DNA from: a virus
Lineage: Duplodnaviria > Caudoviricetes
Reading direction: 5' to 3' (one strand)
Length of the DNA stretch: 64,000 bases
Virus record (IMG/VR): IMGVR_UViG_3300033075_000545
Span: 32,001-96,000 of that record
Shown: positions 428-39,598 of the stretch, one piece after another
Layout: the number at the start of each line of letters is the position of its first letter
Numbering within the stretch: the first letter of the stretch is position 1
Notes under the pieces: model-generated
Told to the model about the DNA's origin: nothing
What the model saw: only the letters and a program-made list of their open reading frames with translations
The model's database searches: none
Position numbers and translations under genes: made by a program

Positions 428-1237
428 GTGGCTTTCAAAAATCTTGCACTGGCAGGGTGGCTGCTGTCCCTATCCACCCTGATTGGGTTTGCGAACGACG
501 GACCTTTCGATCTTCCTGTAGCTCCGATCGTTACGCCGCCCGCTCCGAAGGTGTCCGAAGCTGTTGCCGGTGATCAACTCTGGGTCGTCAACGGTAAGAC
601 AGATGCGGTTGTTCGAGACCACCCGAAAGGTCTCGTGAAGATTACCAAGGAAAATGGTCCGCTCCGTATCCGTGGGAAGTTTGCAGGTGGCACGCAGGTC
701 GAGACCAAAACATTCCCTGGACCGTTCGTATTCATTGTGGAAGCTGTTCCGGGGGTGTCCGGAAAAGTCGACATCGACATCATTCCGCTCGGGTTCAAAG
801 CTGAAACAGAAATTATCAGCCGGACCCTCAGCGTTAACAGTGGTACAGACCCTCCGCCGATAATCCCTCCGGTCACACCCACAGACCCACTCGTCGCCCT
901 GTTTCAGACCGCTATTGACGGCGATCCCGATAGTGTTACAGCCAAGGATGGTACGGTTTATACGCGGTTGCAGTACGCGTCCAAGTTGGCCGCGCTGTAT
1001 GAGGGGGCTGCAAAGATTACCGTACCGACTGTGAAGACGTACGGAGAACTATTTGCAGATCTGAAGGCAGCGGCTGTGTTTCCTGAAACCACTATGCCGA
1101 AACTCAAGATCGCCGTAGGTACGTATCTTGACAGCAAGCTCGCCCCGACCACAAACAAAGCCATCGACAAAGCCGCGTGCGTCGCCGAGTTCAATAAGGT
1201 TGCTGCCACTCTCAAATCCTTGAAGGAGACAAAATAA
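428..1237 (+). CDS. Hypothetical exported protein
   Basis: GTG start with AAGG upstream; signal-peptide-like N-terminus (MAFKNLALAGWLLSLSTLIGFA); Pro-rich linkers; TAATG coupling to the next gene. Confidence 0.7.
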   Translation: MAFKNLALAGWLLSLSTLIGFANDGPFDLPVAPIVTPPAPKVSEAVAGDQLWVVNGKTDAVVRDHPKGLVKITKENGPLRIRGKFAGGTQVETKTFPGPFVFIVEAVPGVSGKVDIDIIPLGFKAETEIISRTLSVNSGTDPPPIIPPVTPTDPLVALFQTAIDGDPDSVTAKDGTVYTRLQYASKLAALYEGAAKITVPTVKTYGELFADLKAAAVFPETTMPKLKIAVGTYLDSKLAPTTNKAIDKAACVAEFNKVAATLKSLKETK

Positions 1238-3462
1238 TGGCAGGTCCCACAGGCTTCATTGAGCCGGCAGATCGTACCCCCGCACAAGAGGCAGCGCACA
1301 ACGACGCCCTCTCGCGGATGGTGATGTTTTCGTTGCCGCCAGTTGTGACGGCCGGTCCGGTCAAGGTACTGTTGACTGACTTCCTGAAAGATCCAGATGT
1401 CGTTGCGGATATTGGCCGTGAGTTTGATGGCTTCCGGCAACTCACCGGGAGTTGCTTCCCTGCGGGAACGCCTGTTCGTATGGTCGACGGTACTGAGAAG
1501 TCTATTGAAAACGTTAAAGTCGATGATCGTGTGGTTACGCATGAAGGTCGTGCGCGGCGCGTAGTTGACACCATGCGGCGAGAATACACGGGTGAGATGG
1601 TTACGCTACATGTCAGCGGGTTCCCATTCCCAGTTGAGTCTACGGCAGACCATCAATTTGCCGTGTCGGTTGGCGGCGAAATTGAATGGAAGCCTGCAGG
1701 GGACATTCAGGAGGGCGACAAGGTTTTGATTGGTTGGAGCCAAACGTTTGCGTCTCCGAAGCCTTTGGACACTGCAGAGCTGCTTGGCGACGGCTGTATC
1801 ATTCTCGACGAACTAATGAAAGACGAGGCTTACACCAAGGGTAACGAACCCGATGTCCCGAACAGTAACATTAGTTCGGCACGTTATATGGTCAAACGGA
1901 GCGGGATTGATTGGCGTGGTCGCGTCCGATTACATAAGTCCCGGGTCGAGAATTCGATTTTTCGTAACGTCCCTATCTGTCCGTCATTCGGACGTTTGCT
2001 TGGCTTGTACCTGGCCGAAGGAGGGTGTCACGAAGGTCGTGTGACCTTTACGTTCCATATGAAAGAACGCGATACCCTGGCTGCGGAAGTATTGGCGCTT
2101 GTTCGTGGATTGTTCGGTGTTGAAGGTGAGCTTGAAATTCAGGAAGCGCATCCAAATCGTTGCGGAGTACGGTTTTCGAACCAAAATCTTGCAACAGTGC
2201 TGAAAGAGCTTGTTCCGGGTAACATCTATACAAAACGCGTCCCGGCCATCATTTTCGGAGCACCAGAGGAAGTACGTTTAGCTGTACTCCTCGGGTGGAT
2301 GGCTGGCGATGGTTACGTAGGCGTTAAAGGTGGAAGGCAACCAGGCAATATTCGGCTAACTGGCGTCTCTGTGTGTGCGGATCTCGCACGCGACATGACT
2401 ACATTAGCACTGTCTTGCGGCCTACGTGCTACGGCCGGACTTCGCAAAGCAAGAGGCGCGTCAAAGGTGTCTTATAGCGTTGATCTGGCAGGCAAAAAAG
2501 CTGTCAGCTTATTCCCTGCCGTCGCGCATCGAGCAACGGGTCCGACGTTTCGTGACAACGATGTGCTTCGAACAGCGAATGGGTACGCACGTAAGGTTCG
2601 AAAGATTACTTACCGAACCGTGGAGCACGTCTCTGTGTACGACTTTGAGGTGGAAGAAGATCACTCTTTCATCGCAGGCGGTCTAGTTGTACATAACTGT
2701 GTTGGCGCTGCGACAGGTAACGCATTGACCGTGCTCAGCGCCGTGCAGCGGAAGATCGCAGACAACCCCACCCAAGCCTTCGTAAATTTTTGGCCGTACG
2801 CATACGGACGTACGCGGTTTAATCAGGGCGACCGTAACCCTGGCGAGGGTGCAGTATCGTCGGTTATGGCAACAACGCTCGGTAACGACGGCGTTCTCGG
2901 TACCCACGAGCCGGGACTCCCAACGTTTACCCATGACGACGGTTACACGCTGACCAAGGCCATTGAAATGCAATGGTCCGATGGCGATTCCCCTACCGTT
3001 ACTCGGTGGTTGGACGCAGGACGGAAGCATACCGTTGGTAGTCGCGGACCCGTCTACACGGCGGAAGACGTGAAAACGGCTATCCTCAATGGTTACCCAG
3101 TACTCAACGGATGTGCGTATTTCGTCGACAACGGCAGCATTCGCGGAAGCGGCGATTCTGCCTATGTCCGCGGACGGTACGACTCGCGGGGTGGTCACGA
3201 AACAGGGTGGTTCGGGTATTGGGATCACCCGGATGACGGGCCGCTGTACCTGTATTGGAACCAATGGACGGCGTCGACGTACGGTAAGGATCCGGCTGGC
3301 GGTCCTCGATGTTCCGTGTGGGTGCCCGAATCCGAAGTTACTCGGATGATGAAAGCTGGATTTGGTGGAATCGTCCGTGGCGAAGCCTTTGCGATTTCGA
3401 ATCTCTCATGGTTTCCGGCACAGGCTGACAAAATCTTGAGCTTCACACAAGTGGGTGCGTAA
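1237..3462 (+). CDS. Papain-like (C1 family) cysteine peptidase interrupted by an intein
   Basis: Spliced exteins give RQLTGS|CVGAATGNA (Q..GSC motif), GGHETGWFGY (catalytic His region) and YWNQW (NSW-like). Confidence 0.75.
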   Translation: MAGPTGFIEPADRTPAQEAAHNDALSRMVMFSLPPVVTAGPVKVLLTDFLKDPDVVADIGREFDGFRQLTGSCFPAGTPVRMVDGTEKSIENVKVDDRVVTHEGRARRVVDTMRREYTGEMVTLHVSGFPFPVESTADHQFAVSVGGEIEWKPAGDIQEGDKVLIGWSQTFASPKPLDTAELLGDGCIILDELMKDEAYTKGNEPDVPNSNISSARYMVKRSGIDWRGRVRLHKSRVENSIFRNVPICPSFGRLLGLYLAEGGCHEGRVTFTFHMKERDTLAAEVLALVRGLFGVEGELEIQEAHPNRCGVRFSNQNLATVLKELVPGNIYTKRVPAIIFGAPEEVRLAVLLGWMAGDGYVGVKGGRQPGNIRLTGVSVCADLARDMTTLALSCGLRATAGLRKARGASKVSYSVDLAGKKAVSLFPAVAHRATGPTFRDNDVLRTANGYARKVRKITYRTVEHVSVYDFEVEEDHSFIAGGLVVHNCVGAATGNALTVLSAVQRKIADNPTQAFVNFWPYAYGRTRFNQGDRNPGEGAVSSVMATTLGNDGVLGTHEPGLPTFTHDDGYTLTKAIEMQWSDGDSPTVTRWLDAGRKHTVGSRGPVYTAEDVKTAILNGYPVLNGCAYFVDNGSIRGSGDSAYVRGRYDSRGGHETGWFGYWDHPDDGPLYLYWNQWTASTYGKDPAGGPRCSVWVPESEVTRMMKAGFGGIVRGEAFAISNLSWFPAQADKILSFTQVGA
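1453..2697 (+). mobile_element. Intein (415 aa) with LAGLIDADG homing endonuclease
   Basis: Begins CFPAGTPV, block B STADHQF, LLGLYLAEG and VLLGWMAGDG motifs, ends VYDFEVEEDHSFIAGGLVVHN followed by Cys+1. Confidence 0.95.
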
Positions 3463-21305: not shown

Positions 21306-24300
21306 ATGTCTCAGCAAATTGAGGCACGGCTGTCGTCCAATTCGCCACATGCCGGGCTCAACTTTGTCCAGCGTCGTTCTGTGATCTCGAAGCGTGACGG
21401 TACTGTCCTCTACGACTTGTCCGTAATCGCGCCAGAAAACTGGTCCCAGACCGCAGTGGACATGATCGCGCAGAAGTACCTCCGTAAGGCAGGCGTACCA
21501 GACAAAACCACTGCCATCACTGAAGAGAAAGTTCCCGAATGGTTGTGGCGCAGAACCGGAGCCCCAGACGCCAAATACGATCGGGAGACGGACTCCCGCC
21601 AGGTGTTCCACCGCATCGCAGGGTGCTGGACATATTGGGGTTGGAAGTTGGGGTATTTCCTCGACGAAGCGCAGGCCAAGAATTACTACGACGAAATCGT
21701 TTTCATGTTGGCCAATCAGATGATGGCCCCCAACAGCCCACAGTGGTTCAACACCGGGTTGAACTACGCGTACGGTATCACAGGCGACGACCGAGGTATG
21801 TGGGGTTTGTACGGGGACGACGTGAAAGCAATCGACGACGCTTACAGTCGGCCTGCGTCTGGAGCGTGTTTCATCCAAACTTTGGATGATACACTAGTCG
21901 GCCCTAACGGTATCACGGACTTTATCGAACGGGAAGCTCGGATCTTCTCGAATGGTGCCGGGAGCGGTGCCAACTACAGCGAGCTCCGTGGCGCCGGCGA
22001 ACCGTTATCTGGTGGTGGTACGTCTTCTGGTCTGTTGAGTTTTCTAAAACCCATCGATGCATCTGCTGGGGCCATTAAAAGTGGGGGAACGTGCCTCGCC
22101 CCTGATACCCGCGTGTTCACGGACCGGGGTGTAGTCCCAGTTTCTGAGTTGGAAGCTTCCGGAGAACGATTCGTATGCTTGAGTTACGATCCCCCTGCGG
22201 GGCGGTACAAAGCAAAGTGGGCTGAAGCGTTCAAGTCCGGACGAAAAATGGTGGTGTTGGTAAAGACCGACAAGGGAGAATTCCGAGTCAGTCACGATCA
22301 CCCGATGCGGTTAGCTTGTGGTGAGTACGCACAAGCAGTAGATCTAGTTGCTGGACAACGCCTGTTCGCGTGTCACGTCGCTAATCGCAACGGCTACTTG
22401 CGTGTTTCGTTGCGTACCGGAAAACGTGGAGGGGGGAGTCGTTACTGGCACCGTCTGATTGGTGAAGACGTTCTTGGTGCGTCGCGTGAGATGGTCGTTG
22501 ACCACGCTGACGACAACAAGCACAACAATCTCATTACTAACTTGGAGTTAAAATCGTCATCGGACCACGCACGACGTCACGGTAGGGCTTTGGCTGCTGT
22601 GGGTAATCATGTATTCCAACAGCGGAAGTTTCCCAAATGTGGTGCGTCTAATCCCATGGCGTCGGGTGCCGCGTTTTGGACCGACACCGTAAAGGTCGCA
22701 TCTTACAAAGCAAAGCAAGCGGACCGTATTCAAGGGCGCGCCGAGGGTATGGCGTTGCTCTCGTCCCGCCAGAAGATGTTGAACTACGCTTGGAAGTGCT
22801 TGAACGCCGGTCAGGTCATTGACAGTTTTTCGGACTACGTGAAAGCGCGCGAGGTCGTTTGCGGACGGATCGGTTGCAAGAAGACTCTCTTGCGAACCAT
22901 TGAGAGTAGGTTCGGTTCATACGCGGAGTTTCTTCGGGAGGTGAATAGTAACAATCACCGAGTCGTGTCTGTTACAGAAGTCGGGGAGATGGACGTTTAC
23001 GATGTCCAAGTGGATTGTCCCACGACCGACGAAAAGGTCCCGGAGAGTGGTCACAACTTTGTGATTTGGTCGGGAGACAATCCCGAGGGCTCTGGTGTCG
23101 CAGTTCACAACACTCGCAGGGCCGCACGTATGGTTGTGCTGGATGTGGACCATCCAGACATCGAAGACTTCATTGGGTGGAAAGCCCGCGAGGAAAAGAA
23201 AGTCGCAGCTCTGGTTGCCGGATCTCGACTGGTCAAACGGAACGTAGACGCGGTGTACAAAGAGAAGGATCCCACCCGTCAGAAGAAGCTAATCGCCAAA
23301 GCGGTCAAGGAGGGTGTTCCTTATGGAACTCTCAAGGCCGTTAAACTTGCCGCGCAGCACGGACAACCATGTCCGCAGGTCGACGAGTTTGACACGGATT
23401 ACGAAAAGGAGGCGTACCAAACCGTGTCTGGACAAAACGCAAACAACTCAGTTCGTATCAGCGATAAGTTCATGGAAGCCGTTCTGGGCGACCGGGAGTG
23501 GCACCTTTACTATCGGACTGAGCTTCGAAAAGCCAAGAAGGAACGTCGCACACCTAAGCCGTGTAAGTCACTCAATGCGCGTGACTTATGGACGAAAATT
23601 GCTCGAGCCTCTTGGGAGTGTGCTGATCCTGGGGTTCAGTTCGACGACGCGGTCAACGACTGGAATCCCGTCATCAATGACTCTAGGATCCGTGCGACTA
23701 ACCCTTGTTGTTTCGTCGGAGAAACGATAGTTGATACGTCAGAGGGGAAGCTGCGGATCGACGAGCTGGTCGCAATGTGTGACCGTGGTGAAATCCTTCC
23801 GTACGCTTTTGGTCACGACCGTGGATCGAAGTCTCTCGCGTTGAAGCCCATCAAACGGGCTTGGTGCGCGGGCCGCACGAGGACCTTGGTACGTGTTACC
23901 ACGGACAAGGGTGTTCAGTTCACGTGCACCCCGGAGCACAAGGTCCTGACATTTAATGGCGATTACATTGAAGCCCAGAATCTTGCCGTAGGAACAAGTC
24001 TCCGCAAGATCCCGAGACACGTGAACGTACGGCGTTCCGGTCGCGTGATGGTTACGGACTCCAAGGCGGGTACTCCGAACGGTACGCAGTACCAGAACAT
24101 TTGGATGTGGGAGAAGGTAAACGGCCCCATCCCGGAAAATATGGAGGTCCATCACAAAAACGACGATCCGGCTGACGACCGCGTCAGTAATTTTGAGCTC
24201 GTCGATCGCATCGAGCACCGGAAGTATCACAGTGCCGGGGAGAACAACCCCAGGTTCCTGGACGTGGACGAATCGTTGCTCGTCGAGGCTTACGAAACAC

Positions 24301-26309
24301 TGACGACCACAGGTAAAGGCAAGGTGTACGGGCGGTTTACCGTGGGCCGTTGGAACAAGATGGTTCAGGAGAAGGGCTGGACCGGACGATTACCCCTGGC
24401 ACGACGTCCCAAGGGGGCGAACGGGATCGTACAAGGTATGTCCTGGGAAGCGTTCGAGTCGAAGCTAAAGGACCTGCGTCAGAAAGCGAACGACAAGGTC
24501 GCGTTGGTAGAGCACATAGCTCTTGGAGAGGAGGTCCCGGTTTACGACCTTGAAGTCGAAGGCACTCACAACTTCGCTGTCACGAACTCGACGTCCCCTG
24601 CGACGCAATCGATCGTGGTCAGTAACAGCGAATTCAATTTCATAGACGATAGTACATGTAACCTATCGTGCTTGAACCTGGTGAAGGCCGTCGTTCGCGA
24701 CGGTGACGTCATCAATTGGCCCGCCACGGTCGAAAGACTGCGGCATATGGCCCGGCTGACGACGATCGGACTCGACATTACCGTGTCGATGTCTTCGTAT
24801 CCGTCGGAAGCCATTGCAAACGGTGCGTACAAATACCGCACCATCGGTCTGGGGTACGCCAATCTCGGCGCGCTCCTTATGCAAAATGGTATTCCTTACG
24901 ACAGTGTCGAGGGCCGAGCGTGGGCGGTCGCCTTCACGGGCGTCATCCACTACCAGTCCACCCTAACTTCGATAGCACTCGCGCAATCGCTGGGGTCTTT
25001 TCCCCAGTACGCCAACAACATTGCGTGCGTAAATAAAGTTCTGAACAACCATGCTCAATATGTTTTGGAGGAGAAGTACGAGGATCTGACCTACCCGCCC
25101 CCGTCCGCTAAACCTCTCCTGGATGCGCTTCCTGCTGTGTTGCGAGAGAAGCTCCAAGATGTTGCGCGAAGCACATTAGTCGTGTTAGACGAGGGGCTCC
25201 GCAACGCCCAGCTCACCCTGGTCCAGCCCGCAGGAACCGTGGGCCTTCTGATGGATTGTGACTGCACCGGCGTAGAACCAGATTTCGCCCTGGTGAAAGG
25301 TAAACAGCTCGCTGGTGGTGGGTGGATCACGATCGTCAACCAGTCAGTTACGCCAGCTCTCAAGAAGCTGGGGTACTCTGACGCGGACGTCGCGACCATC
25401 TGCGACCACGTGCTCAAGAAGGGTACCGTAGAGGGTTGCGAGATCCTCAAGGCGGAGCACCTTCCGGTGTTCGACTGCGCTGTCCCCTGTACGAAGGGTG
25501 GGGGTGTGAGGTCCATCTCCGCAGATGGGCACATGGACATGTTGGCGGCTGTCCAGCCATTGCTCAGCGGCTCCTGCTCGAAGACTCTCAACCTCGATCA
25601 CGACGTAACGGTCGCGGAAGTCGAGCGGGTCCACATGAAGTGCTGGAAGGACCGTATCAAGTGTGCAGCGCTGTATCGTGACGGCTCAAAGTTGAGCCAA
25701 CCACTGAACGCAGGAGACCAGGCTGACGTTTCCGATGTTGAAGACACGGAGGACAAGGAAACCAAATTCGAGGCCACGAAGCGGCGGTATCTTCCGAGTC
25801 GTCGTCGAGGATACACCCAGAAGTTCCGGGTTCCAGGTCACAAGCTCTATCTGCGAACTGGGGAATACGACGATGGGACGATCGGAGAGATCTTCCTGAC
25901 TGCGCACAAGGATGGGGCTCTGTTACAGAGCGTATTGGGGGCTCTGGCCCAAGCCGTGTCGATCGGTCTTCAATACGGGGTCCCGCTGAGCGAGTTTATC
26001 GACGCCTACGTATTCACGCAGTTCGAGCCGAATGGTCCGGTGTCAGGTCACGAGAAGATTAAGAACTGTACTTCGCTGTTGGACGCAATCTTCCGCGATC
26101 TGGGCATTGAATACGGCGGACGGACGGAGCTCGCTCACGTCATCCCACAGGGTAAGGAGGTACCCACCAAGTCTATTACGGCGGATGACGCTGGAGCTGA
26201 GGTGAAATATGAAGGTACTCCGTGTAGGCACTGCGGACAGTTAAAGTTGATCCGTAATGGAACGTGTCTAGTCTGCGTGGCATGTGGAACGACTACAGGT
26301 TGCGCGTGA
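21306..26309 (+). CDS. nrdJ: Class II (B12-dependent) ribonucleotide reductase with two inteins
   Basis: PNSPQWFN, ACFI, spliced SGGT|TRRAA and NPC|SE, RNAQLT..PAGT, YRDGSK, TSCPD-like domain, C-terminal Zn ribbon. Confidence 0.95.
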   Translation: MSQQIEARLSSNSPHAGLNFVQRRSVISKRDGTVLYDLSVIAPENWSQTAVDMIAQKYLRKAGVPDKTTAITEEKVPEWLWRRTGAPDAKYDRETDSRQVFHRIAGCWTYWGWKLGYFLDEAQAKNYYDEIVFMLANQMMAPNSPQWFNTGLNYAYGITGDDRGMWGLYGDDVKAIDDAYSRPASGACFIQTLDDTLVGPNGITDFIEREARIFSNGAGSGANYSELRGAGEPLSGGGTSSGLLSFLKPIDASAGAIKSGGTCLAPDTRVFTDRGVVPVSELEASGERFVCLSYDPPAGRYKAKWAEAFKSGRKMVVLVKTDKGEFRVSHDHPMRLACGEYAQAVDLVAGQRLFACHVANRNGYLRVSLRTGKRGGGSRYWHRLIGEDVLGASREMVVDHADDNKHNNLITNLELKSSSDHARRHGRALAAVGNHVFQQRKFPKCGASNPMASGAAFWTDTVKVASYKAKQADRIQGRAEGMALLSSRQKMLNYAWKCLNAGQVIDSFSDYVKAREVVCGRIGCKKTLLRTIESRFGSYAEFLREVNSNNHRVVSVTEVGEMDVYDVQVDCPTTDEKVPESGHNFVIWSGDNPEGSGVAVHNTRRAARMVVLDVDHPDIEDFIGWKAREEKKVAALVAGSRLVKRNVDAVYKEKDPTRQKKLIAKAVKEGVPYGTLKAVKLAAQHGQPCPQVDEFDTDYEKEAYQTVSGQNANNSVRISDKFMEAVLGDREWHLYYRTELRKAKKERRTPKPCKSLNARDLWTKIARASWECADPGVQFDDAVNDWNPVINDSRIRATNPCCFVGETIVDTSEGKLRIDELVAMCDRGEILPYAFGHDRGSKSLALKPIKRAWCAGRTRTLVRVTTDKGVQFTCTPEHKVLTFNGDYIEAQNLAVGTSLRKIPRHVNVRRSGRVMVTDSKAGTPNGTQYQNIWMWEKVNGPIPENMEVHHKNDDPADDRVSNFELVDRIEHRKYHSAGENNPRFLDVDESLLVEAYETLTTTGKGKVYGRFTVGRWNKMVQEKGWTGRLPLARRPKGANGIVQGMSWEAFESKLKDLRQKANDKVALVEHIALGEEVPVYDLEVEGTHNFAVTNSTSPATQSIVVSNSEFNFIDDSTCNLSCLNLVKAVVRDGDVINWPATVERLRHMARLTTIGLDITVSMSSYPSEAIANGAYKYRTIGLGYANLGALLMQNGIPYDSVEGRAWAVAFTGVIHYQSTLTSIALAQSLGSFPQYANNIACVNKVLNNHAQYVLEEKYEDLTYPPPSAKPLLDALPAVLREKLQDVARSTLVVLDEGLRNAQLTLVQPAGTVGLLMDCDCTGVEPDFALVKGKQLAGGGWITIVNQSVTPALKKLGYSDADVATICDHVLKKGTVEGCEILKAEHLPVFDCAVPCTKGGGVRSISADGHMDMLAAVQPLLSGSCSKTLNLDHDVTVAEVERVHMKCWKDRIKCAALYRDGSKLSQPLNAGDQADVSDVEDTEDKETKFEATKRRYLPSRRRGYTQKFRVPGHKLYLRTGEYDDGTIGEIFLTAHKDGALLQSVLGALAQAVSIGLQYGVPLSEFIDAYVFTQFEPNGPVSGHEKIKNCTSLLDAIFRDLGIEYGGRTELAHVIPQGKEVPTKSITADDAGAEVKYEGTPCRHCGQLKLIRNGTCLVCVACGTTTGCA
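22092..23111 (+). mobile_element. Intein 1 of NrdJ (340 aa) with HNH endonuclease
   Basis: CLAPDTRV..SHDHP..WHRLI..VDHADDNKHNN..NLE..GHNF..VHN|T. Confidence 0.95.
23709..24626 (+). mobile_element. Intein 2 of NrdJ (306 aa) with HNH endonuclease, ending Ser-Asn
   Basis: CFVGET..CTPEH..EVHHKNDDPADDRVSNFEL..EH..H..VYDLEVEGTHNF..VVSN|S. Confidence 0.93.
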
Positions 26310-31911: not shown

Positions 31912-33862
31912 TGTTGGGAAGTACAAGAAGAACCTCATCAGCCTGTCAGGGAATTTGGTTGGGATTGTAGGTCCGAACGGGTCGGGAAAATCAACGGCAC
32001 TATCGGCGATCTATTACGCGTTTACAGGAGACCTGTCTCGGTTGGGTAAGTCAGAGGGAGCTGTTACGTTCCCGCGGCCTGATGATCACCAGCCTTACGT
32101 TAAGCTTGTCCTCTCGCCGTCTGGGACGGGCGGGGATTTGGCCACTTTGACCCGGTGGATTCCGGATGGGAAGTTGAAGGGTAAGCGGAAGCTGACCTAC
32201 GACAACCGAACGTACACTGCGGACGAAGACGTCGCGGCGGTTATCCAGGGTTGGTTCAACATGCCTACAAAGTCCATGGGGGACTTCGCGTTTGTGGCAC
32301 AGGGCAAGTTGACTGATGTGATTGACGCCCCACCTGCGAAACGGGCTGAGGTGTTGCAACACTTGTTCTCGGTGGATGCTGCAGCGAAGGCTCGGGAGTC
32401 GGTGGCCTACGCGATCCGTTCGATTCCGGCGCCTCCAGACTTCGCGGTGATTTCCGCTGCGAGAGCGAGGTCCGCGGAGTTGGAATATCAGTTACTTGAA
32501 GCGACTAAGCAGCTCAAACAGATCAAGCGCTACCCGCAGGAGATGGTCGATGCGGCTTCAACAGTTCTCTCTGACGCTACGGTTCGCGCGTCACTTCTCC
32601 CCACTCGTGACGCTTTACTTGCCAGGGTCATTGGGTACAAGACCGCGGCACTTAAACCGGCTGACCAACGCGCGAAGTCTCACGACGCCTACGAAGAGGT
32701 CACTGCTCGCGTACAGCGGTGGGATGAGTACCGTGTTCGACGCGTTGAGTATCACAACCGTACAGCTCGGCTCGCTGGCTTACGTCAAATTGCCAGCTCG
32801 CTGACCCTAACCGATCCGGGAAGACCTCCCGCTCCTGTTGATGTGAGACAACTTGCCTTATTGGACGCTCTCGCCCAGTGCTCTCACGGGTCAGACTGTC
32901 CGGTGTGTGGACAACCCGCGGACGGGTTGGTCGACGCTAAGAAAGCCAAGCACCAGGCCGATCGGATCCGCAAGGCTCACACCACGTACGAACAGGCTAA
33001 CGCGGAATACCAAAAGAGGAAGCGTGAGTACGACGCTGCTATTGCTAAAAGGGACGCAGCACTCGCGGAGCTCGCGACGATTCCGGAAATGGATCCGCCG
33101 GTACCTCCTGACGTTCCCGAGCCGACGAAGGAGGAGATTGCGACGATTACGAAGCGGGTCCAGGAGCAGGCGGCTTTGGTTCAGAGGATCGAGACAGCGA
33201 AAAAAGAACTCCCGAAATTGGAGTCCGAATTAAAAGATTTGGAAAAAAGACTTCCCGACGAAGTGACAGCAGAAGAGGTAGAATTCGCTAGAAAAGTGCT
33301 GTTTGAGGCCAAGATCAACGAACAAGAGATCTCGCGACTCGGAGGAATTTTGTCGTCGACGCAGGCCGCTCTTGATTCGAATTATAAGATAATTGCGACG
33401 GCCGAACGCGTTGAGCGTGACGCTAAGATGAACGACCAGTGGCGGAAGATTTTGGAGGGGGCTGAGGCCATCCTCCATAGAGACGCTGCACCCGCAGCGG
33501 TTGTACGGTCTCGACTGCAGGGACTTACGGACCGGGTGAATACGGTGTTGGAGTCTTTGGTCGCGGACTTTTGTGTGTCCTTAGACCCCGACGGAAATCT
33601 GATACCACATCGGAACAAGAGACCTGTTCCGAGACTATCGGGCGGTCAATCGGCATTGTTGGCATTGGCTTGGCGGTTGGCTCTTTGTCCTGGATTGCTG
33701 TGTTTGGACGAGCCGACCTATGGTTTGGATGAGAAGCGGATTGAGGCCCTGAGGTTGGCTCTAGACGCGTGGCGGGACCACACAGCTACTAGTCAGATCA
33801 TCATCGTGACCCACGACAATCGTCTTGCCAGTGCCTTCGACACGTTGGTAACGATCTCATGA
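31883..33862 (+). CDS. SbcC/Rad50-like ATPase
   Basis: GPNGSGKST, Q-loop VAQG, zinc hook CPVCG, coiled coils, LSGGQ, LDEPT, VTHD. Confidence 0.92.
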   Translation: MKLVSVELRNVGKYKKNLISLSGNLVGIVGPNGSGKSTALSAIYYAFTGDLSRLGKSEGAVTFPRPDDHQPYVKLVLSPSGTGGDLATLTRWIPDGKLKGKRKLTYDNRTYTADEDVAAVIQGWFNMPTKSMGDFAFVAQGKLTDVIDAPPAKRAEVLQHLFSVDAAAKARESVAYAIRSIPAPPDFAVISAARARSAELEYQLLEATKQLKQIKRYPQEMVDAASTVLSDATVRASLLPTRDALLARVIGYKTAALKPADQRAKSHDAYEEVTARVQRWDEYRVRRVEYHNRTARLAGLRQIASSLTLTDPGRPPAPVDVRQLALLDALAQCSHGSDCPVCGQPADGLVDAKKAKHQADRIRKAHTTYEQANAEYQKRKREYDAAIAKRDAALAELATIPEMDPPVPPDVPEPTKEEIATITKRVQEQAALVQRIETAKKELPKLESELKDLEKRLPDEVTAEEVEFARKVLFEAKINEQEISRLGGILSSTQAALDSNYKIIATAERVERDAKMNDQWRKILEGAEAILHRDAAPAAVVRSRLQGLTDRVNTVLESLVADFCVSLDPDGNLIPHRNKRPVPRLSGGQSALLALAWRLALCPGLLCLDEPTYGLDEKRIEALRLALDAWRDHTATSQIIIVTHDNRLASAFDTLVTIS

Positions 33863-36177
33863 GTAAAGAAGTTATTTGCCTACACCGTATCAATCGGACG
33901 GTTGTCGTCTGTGACGAGAACAGAAGAGAGCCTAAGCCTCAGATCATCTCGTTTCTCGAAGAGAAGCTGACGTATTACGAGAGGAAGTTTAACTTCCAAT
34001 CGCAGTACAACCAGGAAGGAGCATCTCGGATTCAAACCGAGATGAAAACGTTATATGCGAGACACCCACGTACGAACCTGTTGACATTCCCGTTGGGGCT
34101 CCGGCCGCGGATTGCGTCAGAGCTCAACAAGATCGGGTTGGAGGTGCGGTATTTTTCGAAGCCACTTCTGACACCAGAAGCTGAGAGCTTGGACTGGGAC
34201 GGACTGTTTGCGGACTTCCAAATTTTTAGCGGTCAGGATGAGTGTCTGTCGAAAATCATCGCTGCGGATGGGGGTGTGGTTGCCGCTACGACCGGAGCTG
34301 GAAAAAGTGTAATTATAAGAATGTTATGTCGTCTCTACAATAAGGCTAAGATCCATATCATTACGAAGTCAGCAACACTGGCGGACGAGATTGTTACCGA
34401 CGTTGCCAAGGTTATTCCCAACGTGGGTTTCGTTGGGGCGGGGAAGAAGAAGTTTAGTAGGGTGACGGTGTTTATCGCGGACTCGATGCATCATGGGATG
34501 GGTGAGGCGGATATTGTTTTGGCTGACGAGTGTTTTACCGGAGACGTAGAGGTGCTGGTTCCAGGCGGATCGCGTCGAATTGACAGTGTGCGTCCAGGCG
34601 ACTTAGTATATTGTGCAACCGGCTTGGGAAAAGTCGACAGCGTGTTCTGTCGGCCAAAGTCGAATCTTTACCGAGTTGAATTCTCTGATGGCACACAATT
34701 CGTCTGTACTGGAGACCACCCCGTCTTCACCGAAAAGGGGTGGATACCATCCCGACAGTTGGATGGTTCGACGGCTTTCGGCCCAGAAGCCGTGCGCTTT
34801 TTGTGGGAAGCCGATCGTACCGTGGCAGAACAAATCAAAGACGGGAAGGCCACAACACCAATCGGAACCGAGTTGGACCAAGCAAAAGACCTGCTCGCAA
34901 TCCTGTGCGAAGAGGCTTGCGAACCCGATGAGCAAGCTACAGACCCGTCTCAAGGTCCGCGCGCGATTACGAGAGATCAGGCACAAGCCGATCAAGAGAG
35001 GCGGGAACGGGCAATTGCTACCCTTACCTCAACTTGCGCTGCTACACGCACTCGGGGAAGGGTGGGAGTCCGAAGTGTCGATTCCAACGAAGAAACCAGT
35101 GGGGAGTGGTTACCCGACGGCGTACAAATTGGACATTGCTCACAAGGACAAGAAGATCGCGATCGAATTGGACGGAGGCAGTCACTGCTGTCTGGAACGG
35201 AGGACGCAAGACGCGAAAAAGATGATCTTGATGGCCGAGCTCGGGTGGTCCGTGTTTCGCGTGTCGAATGCGAAGGCCCTGTCCCTGTATTCAACCTTCG
35301 TGTCAGTGGACACCCTTCTTACTTCGCTAATGGGAAATTAGTCCATAATTGTCACCAACTAGCTGCGCCGACATACTCTCAAATGTTGGGGCGGTACACT
35401 TCGGCGAAGATGATTGGATTCTCAGCCACTCCAAAGGGGAGAATGGACGGACGAGATGTGTTGTTGGAAGCGATTTTCGGACCGATCCTATATGAGTTTC
35501 CCTACCAAGAGGCACAGAGCGCTGGCCGTGTGGTGCCGATCACAACAGAATTCCTCCGTGTGAAGGAAGGCCCGGACGTAAGTGGGATCGGTTCGATTCC
35601 CGTTCGGGAGCAGGTTGGAATCTGGACGAATCAACACCGCAACAAAGTCATCGCTGAGAGGGTCAAACAGTTCGAACCGGACGAACAGGTGATGATCATG
35701 GTTAAGACCATCGAGCACGCCGTTCGACTTAAAGAGCTCCTTCCTGATTTTACTCTCATACACGCAGCAGACGGTATGGACCCGGAGAGGTTCCGGGAGT
35801 ACGTTCGGTCTGGGATGCTGCAAGCCGACGAGCCACAATTGACCAAGGATCGATTGAAGACGCTGCGTCGCGACTTTGCCAGTGGGAAATTGAAGAAGGT
35901 CATCAGCAACTATGTATGGTCCACTGGGGTGAACTTCGTCAATTTAGCGGTCTTGGTGCGAGCAGATGCTGCGGCCAGTGAGATTGCGGACGGACAGATC
36001 CCGGGGCGAATTTGTCGCCGGGTGCCTGGAATTAAGGAGTCTGCTCTCCTAATCGACGTTTACGATGAGTGGGATCAGACTTTCTTGGAGAGATCGAGAA
36101 AGCGCCGTGTGAACTACGCTAAGAGGGGGTGGGAGATCACCTTCTCGGACCCGAGTTTAGCTTCTAAGGGTGGTTGA
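33859..36177 (+). CDS. SF2 (UvsW/ResIII-like) DExH helicase with an intein in motif II
   Basis: TTGAGKS, spliced ADE|CH, FSATP, STGVN, QIPGRICR. Confidence 0.9.
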   Translation: MSKEVICLHRINRTVVVCDENRREPKPQIISFLEEKLTYYERKFNFQSQYNQEGASRIQTEMKTLYARHPRTNLLTFPLGLRPRIASELNKIGLEVRYFSKPLLTPEAESLDWDGLFADFQIFSGQDECLSKIIAADGGVVAATTGAGKSVIIRMLCRLYNKAKIHIITKSATLADEIVTDVAKVIPNVGFVGAGKKKFSRVTVFIADSMHHGMGEADIVLADECFTGDVEVLVPGGSRRIDSVRPGDLVYCATGLGKVDSVFCRPKSNLYRVEFSDGTQFVCTGDHPVFTEKGWIPSRQLDGSTAFGPEAVRFLWEADRTVAEQIKDGKATTPIGTELDQAKDLLAILCEEACEPDEQATDPSQGPRAITRDQAQADQERRERAIATLTSTCAATRTRGRVGVRSVDSNEETSGEWLPDGVQIGHCSQGQEDRDRIGRRQSLLSGTEDARREKDDLDGRARVVRVSRVECEGPVPVFNLRVSGHPSYFANGKLVHNCHQLAAPTYSQMLGRYTSAKMIGFSATPKGRMDGRDVLLEAIFGPILYEFPYQEAQSAGRVVPITTEFLRVKEGPDVSGIGSIPVREQVGIWTNQHRNKVIAERVKQFEPDEQVMIMVKTIEHAVRLKELLPDFTLIHAADGMDPERFREYVRSGMLQADEPQLTKDRLKTLRRDFASGKLKKVISNYVWSTGVNFVNLAVLVRADAAASEIADGQIPGRICRRVPGIKESALLIDVYDEWDQTFLERSRKRRVNYAKRGWEITFSDPSLASKGG
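34531..35349 (+). mobile_element. Intein (273 aa) whose homing endonuclease is encoded out of frame
   Basis: CFTGDVEV..GDLV..CTGDHPVFTEKGW ... VFNLRVSGHPSYFANGKLVHN|C; the central in-frame region has no recognisable motifs. Confidence 0.92.
34763..35341 (+). CDS. Zn-finger plus DUF559/Vsr-like (EDxHD-type) endonuclease nested in the +1 frame of the intein
   Basis: CAFCGK..TCSQSC, then YKLDIA..KIAIELDGGSH..QDAKK..LGWSVFRVSN. The ORF is open from 34613; ATG 34763 chosen because it follows intein block B. Confidence 0.85.
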   Translation: MVRRLSAQKPCAFCGKPIVPWQNKSKTGRPQHQSEPSWTKQKTCSQSCAKRLANPMSKLQTRLKVRARLREIRHKPIKRGGNGQLLPLPQLALLHALGEGWESEVSIPTKKPVGSGYPTAYKLDIAHKDKKIAIELDGGSHCCLERRTQDAKKMILMAELGWSVFRVSNAKALSLYSTFVSVDTLLTSLMGN

Positions 36178-36895: not shown

Positions 36896-39598
36896 ATGCC
36901 CGAGATCGTTGACGCGACAGACCCCATTGGGTCTGCCGTGAAGCTCGCTCACCGTCCGCGACTGACACAACTGCAGATTTGTTGGATGCTCGCTGGGTGC
37001 ATCAGAATCCCGAGCGTATTTGCCGCAGCGCAGCGGAACCTGACAACACAACTGTTTGAACCTTCAGAGACGAAGTTCATTTTGCTTTGGCGAGGGGCAC
37101 TCGCAACTGCCGCGGATCATCGGGGGGCTATGCCGTCCGTGGATTCGGTTGCAAAAGACATCCTCGTCGTGAAGTGCGACGCGGAGATGGCCAACGACCC
37201 GACGGGCACGTTTTACACGCCTACGGTTCGACAAGCTGTAATGGGCGAGTCGGGTCTCCTAGATGAGATTTACATGCTGGCCGTTGGGCCAGAGACTGAG
37301 GTCGAAGCGTTTAAACTCCTAGCCGAGTTCATCAACGAGCGGGCCTCGTTCGATCCATTCCGTCGTGCTGTGATGGGGATGGGGCCTAACCAAAGCGTGT
37401 CGGATTTCGGCAAGATCGTTGATGAAGTCCAAAAACAGACATTGAACATTGTCGGTTTGGGACGAGATCCCGGCACTTTAGCTGTGGATGAGGAAGTCGA
37501 GTTTCGTCCTGAGTCCCCAAATTTGTTCACCACAAGGGTGAACTGGATGGACCAGATGTTTAATGGGGGACAAGCGCCTAATGAGTGTTACTCGATCCTA
37601 GCCGCAACCGGTGCGGGGAAGTGCCATGGTATTAATACGCCCATTTTGATGTTCGACGGATCTGTGAAGATGGTTCAAGACGTTGTGGTCGGTGATTTGG
37701 TAATGGGGCCGGACTCTCGACCGCGGACTGTGCTGTCGCTTGGACGCGGTCGAGAGATGATGTACCGCGTGACCGGAACAGACGAATCAAGTTACGTGGT
37801 GAACGAGTCGCACATTTTGAGTATCAAGATTACACCACGACGTGTGGGACAAAAGCATTGCGTACTAAATATCCCTCTACGCGAGTATCTTAAAGCAAAT
37901 GAGACATTTAAGCATTGCGCCAAAGGTTACCGCGTCGGCGTTGAGTTCGGTACTAAAACGCTTCCGCTGGACGCGTATTACCTTGGTTTGTGGTTAGCTG
38001 ACGGCTCCGTTGACGCGCCAACGATTCACAAACCGGATCCTGAAGTATTGGAGACCGTTACTACTATCGCGGAATCTTATGGTTTGCGTGTTAACACGAC
38101 CGGTCGTAATCGTTGCCCATCGCACCACCTGTCACGGAAGACGCGATCGGAGACAAACCGCTTACGCCAGAAGATGTCGGAAATGGAGTTGTTCAACAAC
38201 AAACACATTCCTCACGACTATCTGACAGCATCCAGGGATCAGCGTCTCCAGTTGCTTGCAGGCTTGGTGGACGGTGATGGGAGCCTGAGCCACGGAGGAT
38301 ACGAGTACAGCACGGTTTTGGAATCGTTGGCGGATTCCGTGCAATACTTGGCGAGATCCTTAGGGTTGGCGTGTCACAAAAAGCAACGAACGACGCGATG
38401 TCAGACGGGTGTGACTTGTGTGTCCTACAGGTTGTTTATTTCTGGTGACTGTTCCGTAATTCCTTGCCGCATCCCGAGGAAAATGGCGTCCCCACGTAAG
38501 CAAATCAAGGACGCGACTGTGTATGGCATCAAGATTGAACCTATCGGGGAAGGGGACTACTACGGGTTCACAATTGACGGGGACCATTTGTACCTTCTGG
38601 GTGATTTCACGGTAACACACAATACATCGATGGGTGTGCAACTGTCGTTAGAAGGGGCGATGCTTCAAGCATCCCTCGTAGATGAGATCGGTCCAGAAGA
38701 GGCAGGACACTGGTATTACTTCACGTACGAGTTGACACGGAAGCAACTTCAATCTCGGGTATACCAGTACGGCGCGAAGATTCACGCGGATACCTTGCAA
38801 CGGAACGAACCGTACAGCAGTTCGGTACGAAACCCAGGCGGGCTCAAGGCGTACGAACGGGATCCGTATGTGAATTCAGATCCTGATCAGATGTTGGGAG
38901 AGTCCGAGCGTGTCGCGGCGTTCACGAAACGTATGTCGGGGGTGAAGAATCGCCTCCATTTGGTGGATTACTCAGGGGCGTGTGAAGGTCACGGGAATGG
39001 GTACATCCCAGAAATTGCAATGTACTTGAAACGACAACAGTCGATGGGTCGGAAGGTTACGGGGTTTGTGATCGACTACGCGGGTTTGGTTGTGGAGCGT
39101 TGGATCTCAAGCCAGAGAAAATTAAAGCCGGACGACGCGTTTCCTCTCTTGTCGTCGTTCATCGACAACGTACGAAATACGATTGCCCTGCCGCTTGGGT
39201 GTACTGGTTGGATTCTGCACCAGTTGAAAGGGGCGGTTACCAAAAAGAGCGCGGGTACTAAGATGCACCACTCTGAAGCCCAGGGGTGTGCCAGCTTCGC
39301 CAACAACGCCGACTTCGCACTTCAGTGGGGTATGTACAACCGGGTAAACGGATTACTCACGGCAACGTGTACGAAACACCGTCGAGCCCCGGGAGTCGAA
39401 GACGGGATCATCGTTCAGTTCCGCGGCGAGTTCGGGGCCTTTGTCTCTCCGGACAAGGAGTATGCGATCGACCCGATGACGGGTGGATTCGTCCCGAAGG
39501 AATTCTTGGACAAACTCGACAACACTACTCAGTCACGAGGGCACGTCATGTCCGGGGCACCAATCGGTTCCCGGTTTGACCCGCTGGGTGACTTCTAG
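36896..39598 (+). CDS. DnaB-like (SF4) replicative helicase with an intein in Walker A
   Basis: Spliced AATGAGK|T, FTYE, VIDYA, LHQL, ANNADF, KHRR; directly upstream of the primase. Confidence 0.8.
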   Translation: MPEIVDATDPIGSAVKLAHRPRLTQLQICWMLAGCIRIPSVFAAAQRNLTTQLFEPSETKFILLWRGALATAADHRGAMPSVDSVAKDILVVKCDAEMANDPTGTFYTPTVRQAVMGESGLLDEIYMLAVGPETEVEAFKLLAEFINERASFDPFRRAVMGMGPNQSVSDFGKIVDEVQKQTLNIVGLGRDPGTLAVDEEVEFRPESPNLFTTRVNWMDQMFNGGQAPNECYSILAATGAGKCHGINTPILMFDGSVKMVQDVVVGDLVMGPDSRPRTVLSLGRGREMMYRVTGTDESSYVVNESHILSIKITPRRVGQKHCVLNIPLREYLKANETFKHCAKGYRVGVEFGTKTLPLDAYYLGLWLADGSVDAPTIHKPDPEVLETVTTIAESYGLRVNTTGRNRCPSHHLSRKTRSETNRLRQKMSEMELFNNKHIPHDYLTASRDQRLQLLAGLVDGDGSLSHGGYEYSTVLESLADSVQYLARSLGLACHKKQRTTRCQTGVTCVSYRLFISGDCSVIPCRIPRKMASPRKQIKDATVYGIKIEPIGEGDYYGFTIDGDHLYLLGDFTVTHNTSMGVQLSLEGAMLQASLVDEIGPEEAGHWYYFTYELTRKQLQSRVYQYGAKIHADTLQRNEPYSSSVRNPGGLKAYERDPYVNSDPDQMLGESERVAAFTKRMSGVKNRLHLVDYSGACEGHGNGYIPEIAMYLKRQQSMGRKVTGFVIDYAGLVVERWISSQRKLKPDDAFPLLSSFIDNVRNTIALPLGCTGWILHQLKGAVTKKSAGTKMHHSEAQGCASFANNADFALQWGMYNRVNGLLTATCTKHRRAPGVEDGIIVQFRGEFGAFVSPDKEYAIDPMTGGFVPKEFLDKLDNTTQSRGHVMSGAPIGSRFDPLGDF
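37622..38623 (+). mobile_element. Intein (334 aa) with LAGLIDADG endonuclease
   Basis: CHGINTPI..VNESH..YLGLWLADG..LLAGLVDGDG..YYGFTIDGDHLYLLGDFTVTHN|T. Confidence 0.95.

Follow-up and report, generated by a model that had tools for sequence, protein, structure and literature searches.

Endonuclease genes that lie in an alternative frame or on the opposite strand of an intein were reported by Gorbalenya in 1998, as cited in later papers. In actinophages, Gosselin, Arsenault & Gogarten described non-canonical inteins that contain antisense LAGLIDADG, antisense VSR-like or frame-3 endonuclease VII-like genes, reside in DNA polymerase, minor capsid, terminase and thymidylate synthase, and are proposed to have originated when a free-standing endonuclease gene invaded an intein (bioRxiv 10.1101/2025.01.02.630785). 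A cyanobacterial dnaX intein with an out-of-frame LAGLIDADG gene was described by Phillips, DeSimone & Gogarten, who cite Gorbalenya 1998 as having noted it first; in the overlap, the ratio of nonsynonymous to synonymous substitution rates (dN/dS) is depressed for the endonuclease frame and raised for the intein frame, and a secondary invasion of a mini-intein is proposed as the origin (bioRxiv 10.64898/2026.09.14.751524). Also known are fractured genes, in which a free-standing Vsr-like or GIY-YIG endonuclease gene lies between the halves of a split intein (Dassa et al. 2009, PMC2677866); the ShiLan insertion, in which a phage methylase conceals an HNH endonuclease that is out of frame (PMC11855218); and I-Bth0305I, the EDxHD prototype, which is encoded in a group I intron and cuts the uninterrupted allele beside the insertion site (Taylor et al. 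2011, PMC3239194; PDB 3r3p). Here we analyze an intein in the DExH-box helicase of a tailed virus (Caudoviricetes), contained in a 64,000-nucleotide stretch (hereafter the window; positions 32,001 to 96,000 of IMG/VR record IMGVR_UViG_3300033075_000545, a metagenome-derived virus record of 129,973 bp). We consider it likely that this intein is contiguous and splicing-competent and that its endonuclease is a separate gene, overprinted in the +1 frame across the intein centre; the observed dual coding, the switch of selection between frames, the stop-free frame-0 linker, and a start and a stop inside the intein all support an overprinted separate gene.

The host gene is a helicase of 772 amino acids (aa) in which the Pfam ResIII domain scored 30.4 bits (cut-off 22.5), accompanied by weaker DEAD and Helicase_C signals. 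Residues 225-497 of this protein are the intein, and the open reading frame (ORF) runs ...LADE|CFTGD...KLVHN|CHQLAA. The C1 residue, TGDH (the TxxH of block B), the terminal HN and Cys+1 can all be read directly and are kept across 13 loci, in agreement with a first-pass annotation of the sequence that had reported a 273-aa intein with intact blocks splitting DE|CH. Because the blocks are intact and the DExH box of the helicase is interrupted, we infer that the intein is splicing-competent. Among profile models, TIGR01443 (intein_Cterm) scored 16.9 bits in the whole helicase protein, above its cut-off of 15.6, and Pfam Intein_splicing (26.8 bits; cut-off 35.8) and TIGR01445 (24.1 bits; cut-off 24.5) fell below theirs. 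In the AlphaFold2 (AF2) model of the frame-0 intein, the pLDDT (predicted local distance difference test) score exceeds 90 at residues 1-90 and 235-273, is low (26-78) across residues 100-232, and drops below 50 at residues 107-111, 131-148 and 168-232. The frame-0 centre is accordingly modelled as a disordered linker, in the position that the endonuclease domain occupies in canonical inteins. The best Foldseek match of the model is the gp41-1 mini-intein (6qaz; E 2.5e-7, TMt 0.84, 12% identity), and the model has 39 PDB matches at E<=0.001, of which every one listed is an intein, a bacterial intein-like domain or a hedgehog Hint domain.

The +1 frame of the same DNA is free of stops from 34607 to 35338 and closes with a TAG at 35339-35341. 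The first-pass annotation had proposed a nested +1 ORF from ATG 34763 to TAG 35341 whose 192-aa product (P0001, by which residues are numbered below) carries a zinc finger and a DUF559 nuclease, and a profile hidden Markov model search of both frames agrees: Pfam DUF559 (PF04480) is reached in the +1 frame only, at 25.6 bits against a threshold of 20.6, the TIGR01443 match being to the helicase protein. The four cysteines of the zinc ribbon are invariant among 32 homologues, as are D124, E135, D137, H141, D150 and K153, and the window copy keeps every invariant residue. With these 32 homologues, AF2 models the +1 product at a mean pLDDT of 88.3, the zinc-ribbon region lying above 90. A sequence profile of the +1 product searched against the PDB matched the DUF559 protein 3hrl (E 0.0027), and in a structural comparison (VIA) the model region of residues ~80-192 matched 3hrl at Z 9.3 (root-mean-square deviation 2.5 over 82 residues), 3r3p at Z 8.6 and Vsr (1cw0) at Z 8.2. 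In addition, the E-x-D-G-x-x-H ... D constellation of the product aligns with the EADGGQH..D motif of 3hrl. These clear matches point to a Vsr/DUF559 fold for the modelled product; only the fold is clearly common to it and I-Bth0305I of the EDxHD family, the profile E-value for 3r3p being 0.049. In the protein database the product has 122 homologous clusters, mostly of ~219 aa, and most of them carry PF04480 and/or PF18741.

To follow selection along the two frames, 13 non-redundant inteins were aligned in both frames and their pairwise differences tallied by codon position. At 34531-34792, variation is highest at frame-0 codon position 3 (0.71, 0.65). At 34793-35241 it is highest at +1 position 3, which is frame-0 position 1 (0.64 vs 0.47, 0.43), and at 35270-35349 the maximum is again at frame-0 position 3. 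Amino-acid identity changes in the same sense, being 0.22 in frame 0 and 0.40 in +1 in the centre, and 0.54 in frame 0 and 0.35 in +1 at the carboxy-terminal end. The Vibrio phages 159E43-1b and 104E43.1 (L002/L021) differ at 42 positions over 900 nucleotides (nt) with zero indels: in the amino-terminal part, the differences that are synonymous number 12 of 15 for frame 0 and 2 of 15 for +1, and in the nuclease core the counts become 2 of 24 for frame 0 and 17 of 24 for +1, with 18 of the 24 at frame-0 position 1 (Fisher P=8e-6; phase test P=4e-5). Judged from these substitutions, selection switches frame, acting on frame 0 at both Hint half-domains and on +1 between them.

The number of stops expected in the frames overlying the nuclease was obtained by shuffling the synonymous codons of the nuclease core while the protein and its codon content were held fixed. 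Across this core the window's intein frame has 0 stops vs 4.6 expected (P=0.0014), and the third frame has 3 vs 6.3 expected. The intein frame is stop-free in 13/13 diverged loci, for which 2.1-9.5 stops each are expected, and the third frame has stops at the expected rate. Frame 0 in the centre thus appears to retain freedom from stop codons only, by way of the codon choice of the nuclease gene. An open reading in both frames thus exceeds chance expectation, and the check set by the first-pass annotation, whether homologous inteins keep both frames open with purifying selection on +1 in the centre, comes out in its favour.

A narrower claim, that both frames are constrained at 35242-35269, stands in part. 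The frame-0 peptide encoded there is a predicted strand of the Hint fold (E236-245), and the pLDDT rises from 76 to 94 over residues 231-250; the substitution phase, on the other hand, matches +1 alone, with differences by +1 codon position of 0.26, 0.13 and 0.49. Dual constraint is plausible on structural grounds in the model, and is weakly supported overall, since the substitution data follow +1 alone. The features of the locus are collected in Table 1.

Table 1. Features of the helicase gene, its intein and the nested nuclease gene (window coordinates)
Feature	Position	Strand	Remarks
SF2 (superfamily 2) helicase gene (DExH-box, ResIII/Helicase_C)	33859..36177	+	single unbroken 772-aa ORF, intein included
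Class-1-type intein, 273 aa	34531..35349	+	between E and C of the DECH box; Cys+1 at 35350-35352
N-terminal splicing domain (blocks A, B)	34531..34792	+	frame-0 selection; pLDDT >90 at residues 1-90
Central intein segment, frame-0 reading	34793..35241	+	stop-free, unconstrained linker, predicted disordered
Short stretch shared by both products	35242..35269	+	GWSVFRVSN in +1; RVVRVSRVE, predicted Hint strand, in frame 0
C-terminal splicing domain (blocks F, G, final HN)	35270..35349	+	frame-0 selection; pLDDT >90 at residues 235-273
Nested +1 gene, homing-endonuclease-like protein	34688..35341	+	217 aa from ATG 34688; 192 aa from ATG 34763
Zinc ribbon of the +1 product	34793..34906	+	CxxC ... 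CxxxC; C11, C14, C44, C48 of P0001
DUF559/Vsr-like PD-(D/E)xK nuclease domain	34997..35272	+	RGGNG .. YKLD .. IELDGGSH .. QD..KK .. GWSVFRVSN

The metagenomic origin of the record, together with a genuine in-frame relative in another helicase family (P0151, see below), gives some reason to ask whether an assembly or sequencing artefact, in the form of compensating indels, conceals an in-frame endonuclease domain. The probability of this is negligible. Contigs from four separate studies are identical to the window, with 0 gaps, over the parts of 34300-35600 that each covers (one spans all of this interval and another covers 34459-35600), so that independent assemblies show no indel over 34500-35400, and the same +1 offset is found in isolate phage genomes from different laboratories.

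The nested arrangement is widespread. A blastn search of the helicase gene against GenBank phages returned nothing, and relatives were reached by protein-level searches only; tblastn of the +1 product against the same phages returned 41 records. In 40 of these a coding sequence (CDS) overlies the match, either one called helicase or a long one called 'hypothetical' or 'coil containing', the exception being a free-standing endonuclease gene in a Leptolyngbya phage, and wherever the frames were compared the match reads in exactly +1 relative to the annotated CDS. The Vibrio phages CP-T1 and 159E43-1b and the Corynebacterium phage phi673, for instance, have DE|CF...VHN|CHH with a nested zinc-ribbon/nuclease ORF. 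The nuclease ORF is in +1 and fully nested in 18/18 loci, drawn from isolates, a Xanthobacter prophage, a Marinobacter metagenome-assembled genome (MAG), IMG/VR contigs and metagenomes, and the same nesting in three further phages (Pseudomonas MR14, Vibrio 104E43.1 and 1.194.O) brings the total to 21 loci, as expected if the endonuclease gene is self-contained and overprinted in a contiguous intein, which the first-pass annotation had put forward as one of two options. Frame 0 is unbroken in the window and in 16 of the 18 loci, an arrangement distinct from that of a split intein or a fractured gene. The forecast that standard gene callers would miss the nested ORF also proved right: it is annotated in none of the six GenBank records inspected (NC_019457, OZ196825, NC_042354, MT104474, MW824411 and MG592563), in three of which the host gene is named helicase and in the others 'hypothetical' or 'coil containing protein'. 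A contig scan with fixed peptide patterns gave a single locus, a figure that reflects the limit of the method and not rarity.

Several of the related loci have features of their own. In the Vibrio phages CP-T1 (L001:2411-3160) and 1.194.O (L022), the nested nuclease has two CxxC..CSKxC zinc-ribbon modules, and the inteins are ~353-356 aa long. A 215-nt contig (run X3 record 4) matches the start of the zinc ribbon only (34775-34810) with flanks unlike those of the window, and is probably a related intein-endonuclease element from the same wastewater sample. In L005 (2493-3911), L007, L023 and L024, shifts of 1 nt fuse or break the frames; these contigs are single, short or of low coverage, and error and real decay are indistinguishable in them. 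Accordingly, P0081 (L007) was rejected as an in-frame intein-nuclease fusion because it involves two 1-nt shifts on a contig of 1.46x coverage, and neither L005, in which the frame is broken close to block F on one contig only, nor the frame-fused proteins P0149 and P0150, each from a single short contig, were counted as evidence of split or in-frame forms.

The start and stop of the nuclease gene are written within the intein in a conserved manner. An ATG (34688 in the window) stands 35-36 codons ahead of the CxxC in 10/10 loci of the window's subfamily, and it arises from a GAT or AAT codon and the following G, at a conserved D/N-G (or D-D) site that precedes block B. The usage of these NAT codons in the exteins is 0.08-0.71, which gives a joint probability of ~2e-5 for the start across the 10 loci. 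The stop is likewise formed in 10/10 loci as a TAG from an xTA codon and the following G, 3-4 codons short of the intein end, and TTA and CTA together make up merely 0-31% of the leucine codons in exteins. Shine-Dalgarno-like (SD-like) GGAG/GAGG motifs stand 7-10 nt upstream of the start ATG in 8 loci. As read from the sequence, then, the nuclease gene is complete in itself: it both begins and ends within the intein, so that the two can move as one unit. A promoter-like TTGACA-18-TAGTAT (10/12 matches) is present at 34580-34609 (+), ~80 nt upstream of ATG 34688 and within the N domain; a sigma-70-type promoter scan of the region found 3 sites vs 1.7 +/- 1.5 expected, no excess over chance.

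These signals also bear on how the nuclease is reached, for which the first-pass annotation had offered either overprinting or a +1 frameshift. A programmed +1 ribosomal frameshift would yield a fusion of N-extein, N-intein and nuclease; such fusions are how the metagenome proteins P0149 and P0150 read, upstream of both ATGs the window (from 34607) and its closest relative L004 keep the +1 frame open, and the window copy has no SD-like motif. We nevertheless regard frameshifting as very unlikely, because the in-intein ATG, often with GGAG/GAGG upstream, and the in-intein stop are both conserved: the ATG is built from disfavoured NAT codons in all 10 subfamily loci, and in 7 of the 10 a +1 stop lies no more than 6 codons upstream of it. 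The shift points of P0149 and P0150, moreover, are unlike each other and occur on single short contigs. The overprinting half of the proposal is the one that the conserved start and stop favour.

The distribution of the intein among helicases provides a further view of the element. A search with the N-extein gave 25 orthologous helicases, and about 20 orthologues, 479-516 aa long, have no DECH-box intein; in two of these the DECH is intact, and others have DELH, DEIH or DEVH. Related inteins are placed at DE|CH, DE|CN or DE|CA, or two codons on at DEAH|C; the latter placement, DEAH|C..HN|CQ, is seen in the Xanthobacter prophage and the Marinobacter MAG (L006:2847-3665, L014:2766-3587). Such a sporadic distribution among orthologous helicases fits a mobile homing element. 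Four of the orthologues (P0137, P0138, P0142 and P0147; alignment A2) have a LAGLIDADG-type intein in Walker A (GK|A..THN|S) and no DExH-box intein, so that intein sites in the window's helicase family number at least two. Elsewhere in the window there are further inteins with in-frame endonucleases: an HNH-bearing one in a class II ribonucleotide reductase (21306-26309), one of the Hom_end/LAGLIDADG type in a 900-aa protein (36896-39598), and a LAGLIDADG intein in a 741-aa protein (1237-3462).

The sporadic occurrence has a bearing on whether the +1 ORF is a relic, that is, whether the endonuclease is no longer expressed or active and what remains is a vertically inherited mini-intein with a long linker. 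Homing endonuclease genes often decay once fixed, as is generally known and is discussed in bioRxiv 10.64898/2026.09.14.751524 and bioRxiv 10.1101/2025.01.02.630785. For this locus decay seems highly improbable, given that the window copy keeps all residues invariant in the 32 homologues, that purifying selection acts in +1 with the start and stop maintained, and that the intein occurs only sporadically among orthologous helicases.

The metagenome protein P0151 is an 822-aa UvrD-like helicase of superfamily 1 (SF1), present on four contigs that are between 20 kb and 200 kb long. Its intein, at DE|C...HN|CQD, carries the nuclease domain in frame; this domain is 56% identical to that of the window and lacks the zinc ribbon. 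By sequence relationship, therefore, nested and canonical in-frame arrangements of one nuclease lineage coexist. An in-frame Vsr-like intein endonuclease such as that of P0151 itself seems unreported in the literature examined.

The first-pass annotation had further suggested that the layout could be a passing intermediate towards split inteins, and a short-lived stage on the way from a canonical intein to a split intein or fractured gene would find some echoes in the data. In fractured genes, the Vsr-like genes that separate the split-intein halves share 6-69 bp with the C-terminal half (PMC2677866), the best structural match of the window's intein, gp41-1, is a split intein of the fractured-gene set, and a few loci (L005, L007) have frame-breaking indels. 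Yet avoidance of stops in frame 0 is upheld in all 13 loci, which have diverged to synonymous saturation, and this indicates that the contiguous form has been stable over the long term; the loci with indels are on single or low-coverage contigs (1.46x for L007), and the gp41-1 match is at just 12% identity. We therefore think a transient stage unlikely: a layout under selection in at least 13 deeply diverged loci, in a family with 122 protein clusters, has the appearance of a stable state, contrary to the original suggestion.

Several observations weigh against the reading of a contiguous intein with an overprinted endonuclease gene, or limit how far it can be carried. The main set of inteins is saturated at synonymous sites (pS ~0.75), so that its ratios of nonsynonymous to synonymous differences (pN/pS) in the centre, 1.19 in frame 0 and 0.49 in +1, are compressed; we therefore rely on the codon-phase counts and on one unsaturated pair, and this cleanest test of selection is a single close pair (L002/L021) that belongs to another subfamily. 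Foldseek of the whole nuclease model returned nothing at E<=0.001, and lists 3hrl, 3r3p and 1cw0 at weak E-values of at least 0.009. In the window copy and in L004 there is no SD-like motif ahead of either ATG. Finally, 34688-34792 evolves under frame 0, and therefore sequence alone cannot choose between ATG 34688 and ATG 34763.

If the endonuclease is indeed an overprinted gene, the helicase mRNA would be translated in two ways. Translation in frame 0 would give a precursor that splices to the active DECH helicase, and internal initiation at an in-intein ATG (34688, possibly 34763) would give a free zinc-ribbon/Vsr-like nuclease. The free nuclease would then cleave the intein-less DECH alleles of relatives that co-infect the cell, with repair copying the intein into the cut allele (homing). 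In such a scheme the dosage of the nuclease would be uncoupled from that of the helicase.

In a broader reading, which we advance tentatively and hold at somewhat less than an even chance, the nested +1 layout would be a long-lived, self-contained design, whose start, SD-like site and stop are written into the splicing-block coding sequence with codons that are otherwise avoided, so that a full endonuclease gene with translation of its own travels with the intein into any new host gene, and whose nuclease lineage can switch to the in-frame form, as in P0151 in an SF1 helicase. If this is true, the nuclease family is a living record of how inteins gain endonucleases. The family bears on that question in any case, since its nuclease lineage occurs both nested and in frame. 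Our analysis also suggests that the homing endonuclease of a widespread phage helicase intein family, with 122 protein clusters and 40 GenBank phage records, is encoded by an overlapping gene, and that the family offers a natural example of overprinting in which selection maintains a protein sequence in one frame and nothing beyond freedom from stops in the other. In practical terms, gene callers and intein databases should scan the alternative frames of 'endonuclease-less' inteins.

The claim of the first-pass annotation that the architecture is undescribed does not hold, since out-of-frame or antisense intein endonucleases are reported in bioRxiv 10.1101/2025.01.02.630785 and bioRxiv 10.64898/2026.09.14.751524, and in Gorbalenya 1998 as cited there. 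An intein with an out-of-frame endonuclease is an already described kind, and the window's intein belongs to it, having a nested nuclease ORF, a host frame that stays open and selection that acts on the alternative frame. In no paper did we find a description of a helicase intein with a sense-strand +1 Vsr/DUF559 gene, and that variant appears to be unreported; it extends the 'non-canonical intein' class to a same-strand Vsr/DUF559 nuclease.

Among the known systems, the actinophage non-canonical inteins resemble that of the window in being contiguous, with an open host frame and an endonuclease ORF of the free-standing type between the splicing blocks (bioRxiv 10.1101/2025.01.02.630785). Their Vsr-like genes are antisense, however, and their same-strand genes are endonuclease VII-like and in frame 3, whereas the window's Vsr/DUF559 gene is sense, in +1, equipped with a zinc ribbon and hosted by a DExH helicase. 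The dnaX intein shares the overlapping same-strand endonuclease ORF and the same frame-dependent dN/dS pattern, and differs in having a LAGLIDADG endonuclease in a +2 ORF in cellular cyanobacteria, where the window has a DUF559/Vsr-like gene in +1, in a phage and in another host gene. Fractured genes are alike in their phage replication/repair hosts and in the same-strand Vsr-like gene between N- and C-intein, whose 3' end overlaps the C-intein coding sequence (PMC2677866); in them the host ORF ends at a stop and resumes at a new start after a spacer of 27-51 nt, splicing being in trans, whereas frame 0 of the window's helicase is unbroken and the endonuclease gene overlaps it fully. With I-Bth0305I the window's nuclease shares the Vsr-like catalytic fold (VIA Z 8.6, Foldseek probability 1.0), but I-Bth0305I is intron-encoded and has another N-terminal DNA-binding region, and the nuclease of the window is nearer to the DUF559 protein 3hrl, its sequence relation to I-Bth0305I being weak. 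The ShiLan insertion, lastly, has an out-of-frame endonuclease ORF with start and stop within the insertion and a host frame that is stop-free across it, as has the window; its endonuclease is of the HNH type and no splicing domains are detectable in it, whereas the window has a clear Hint domain with C1, TxxH and HN|C.

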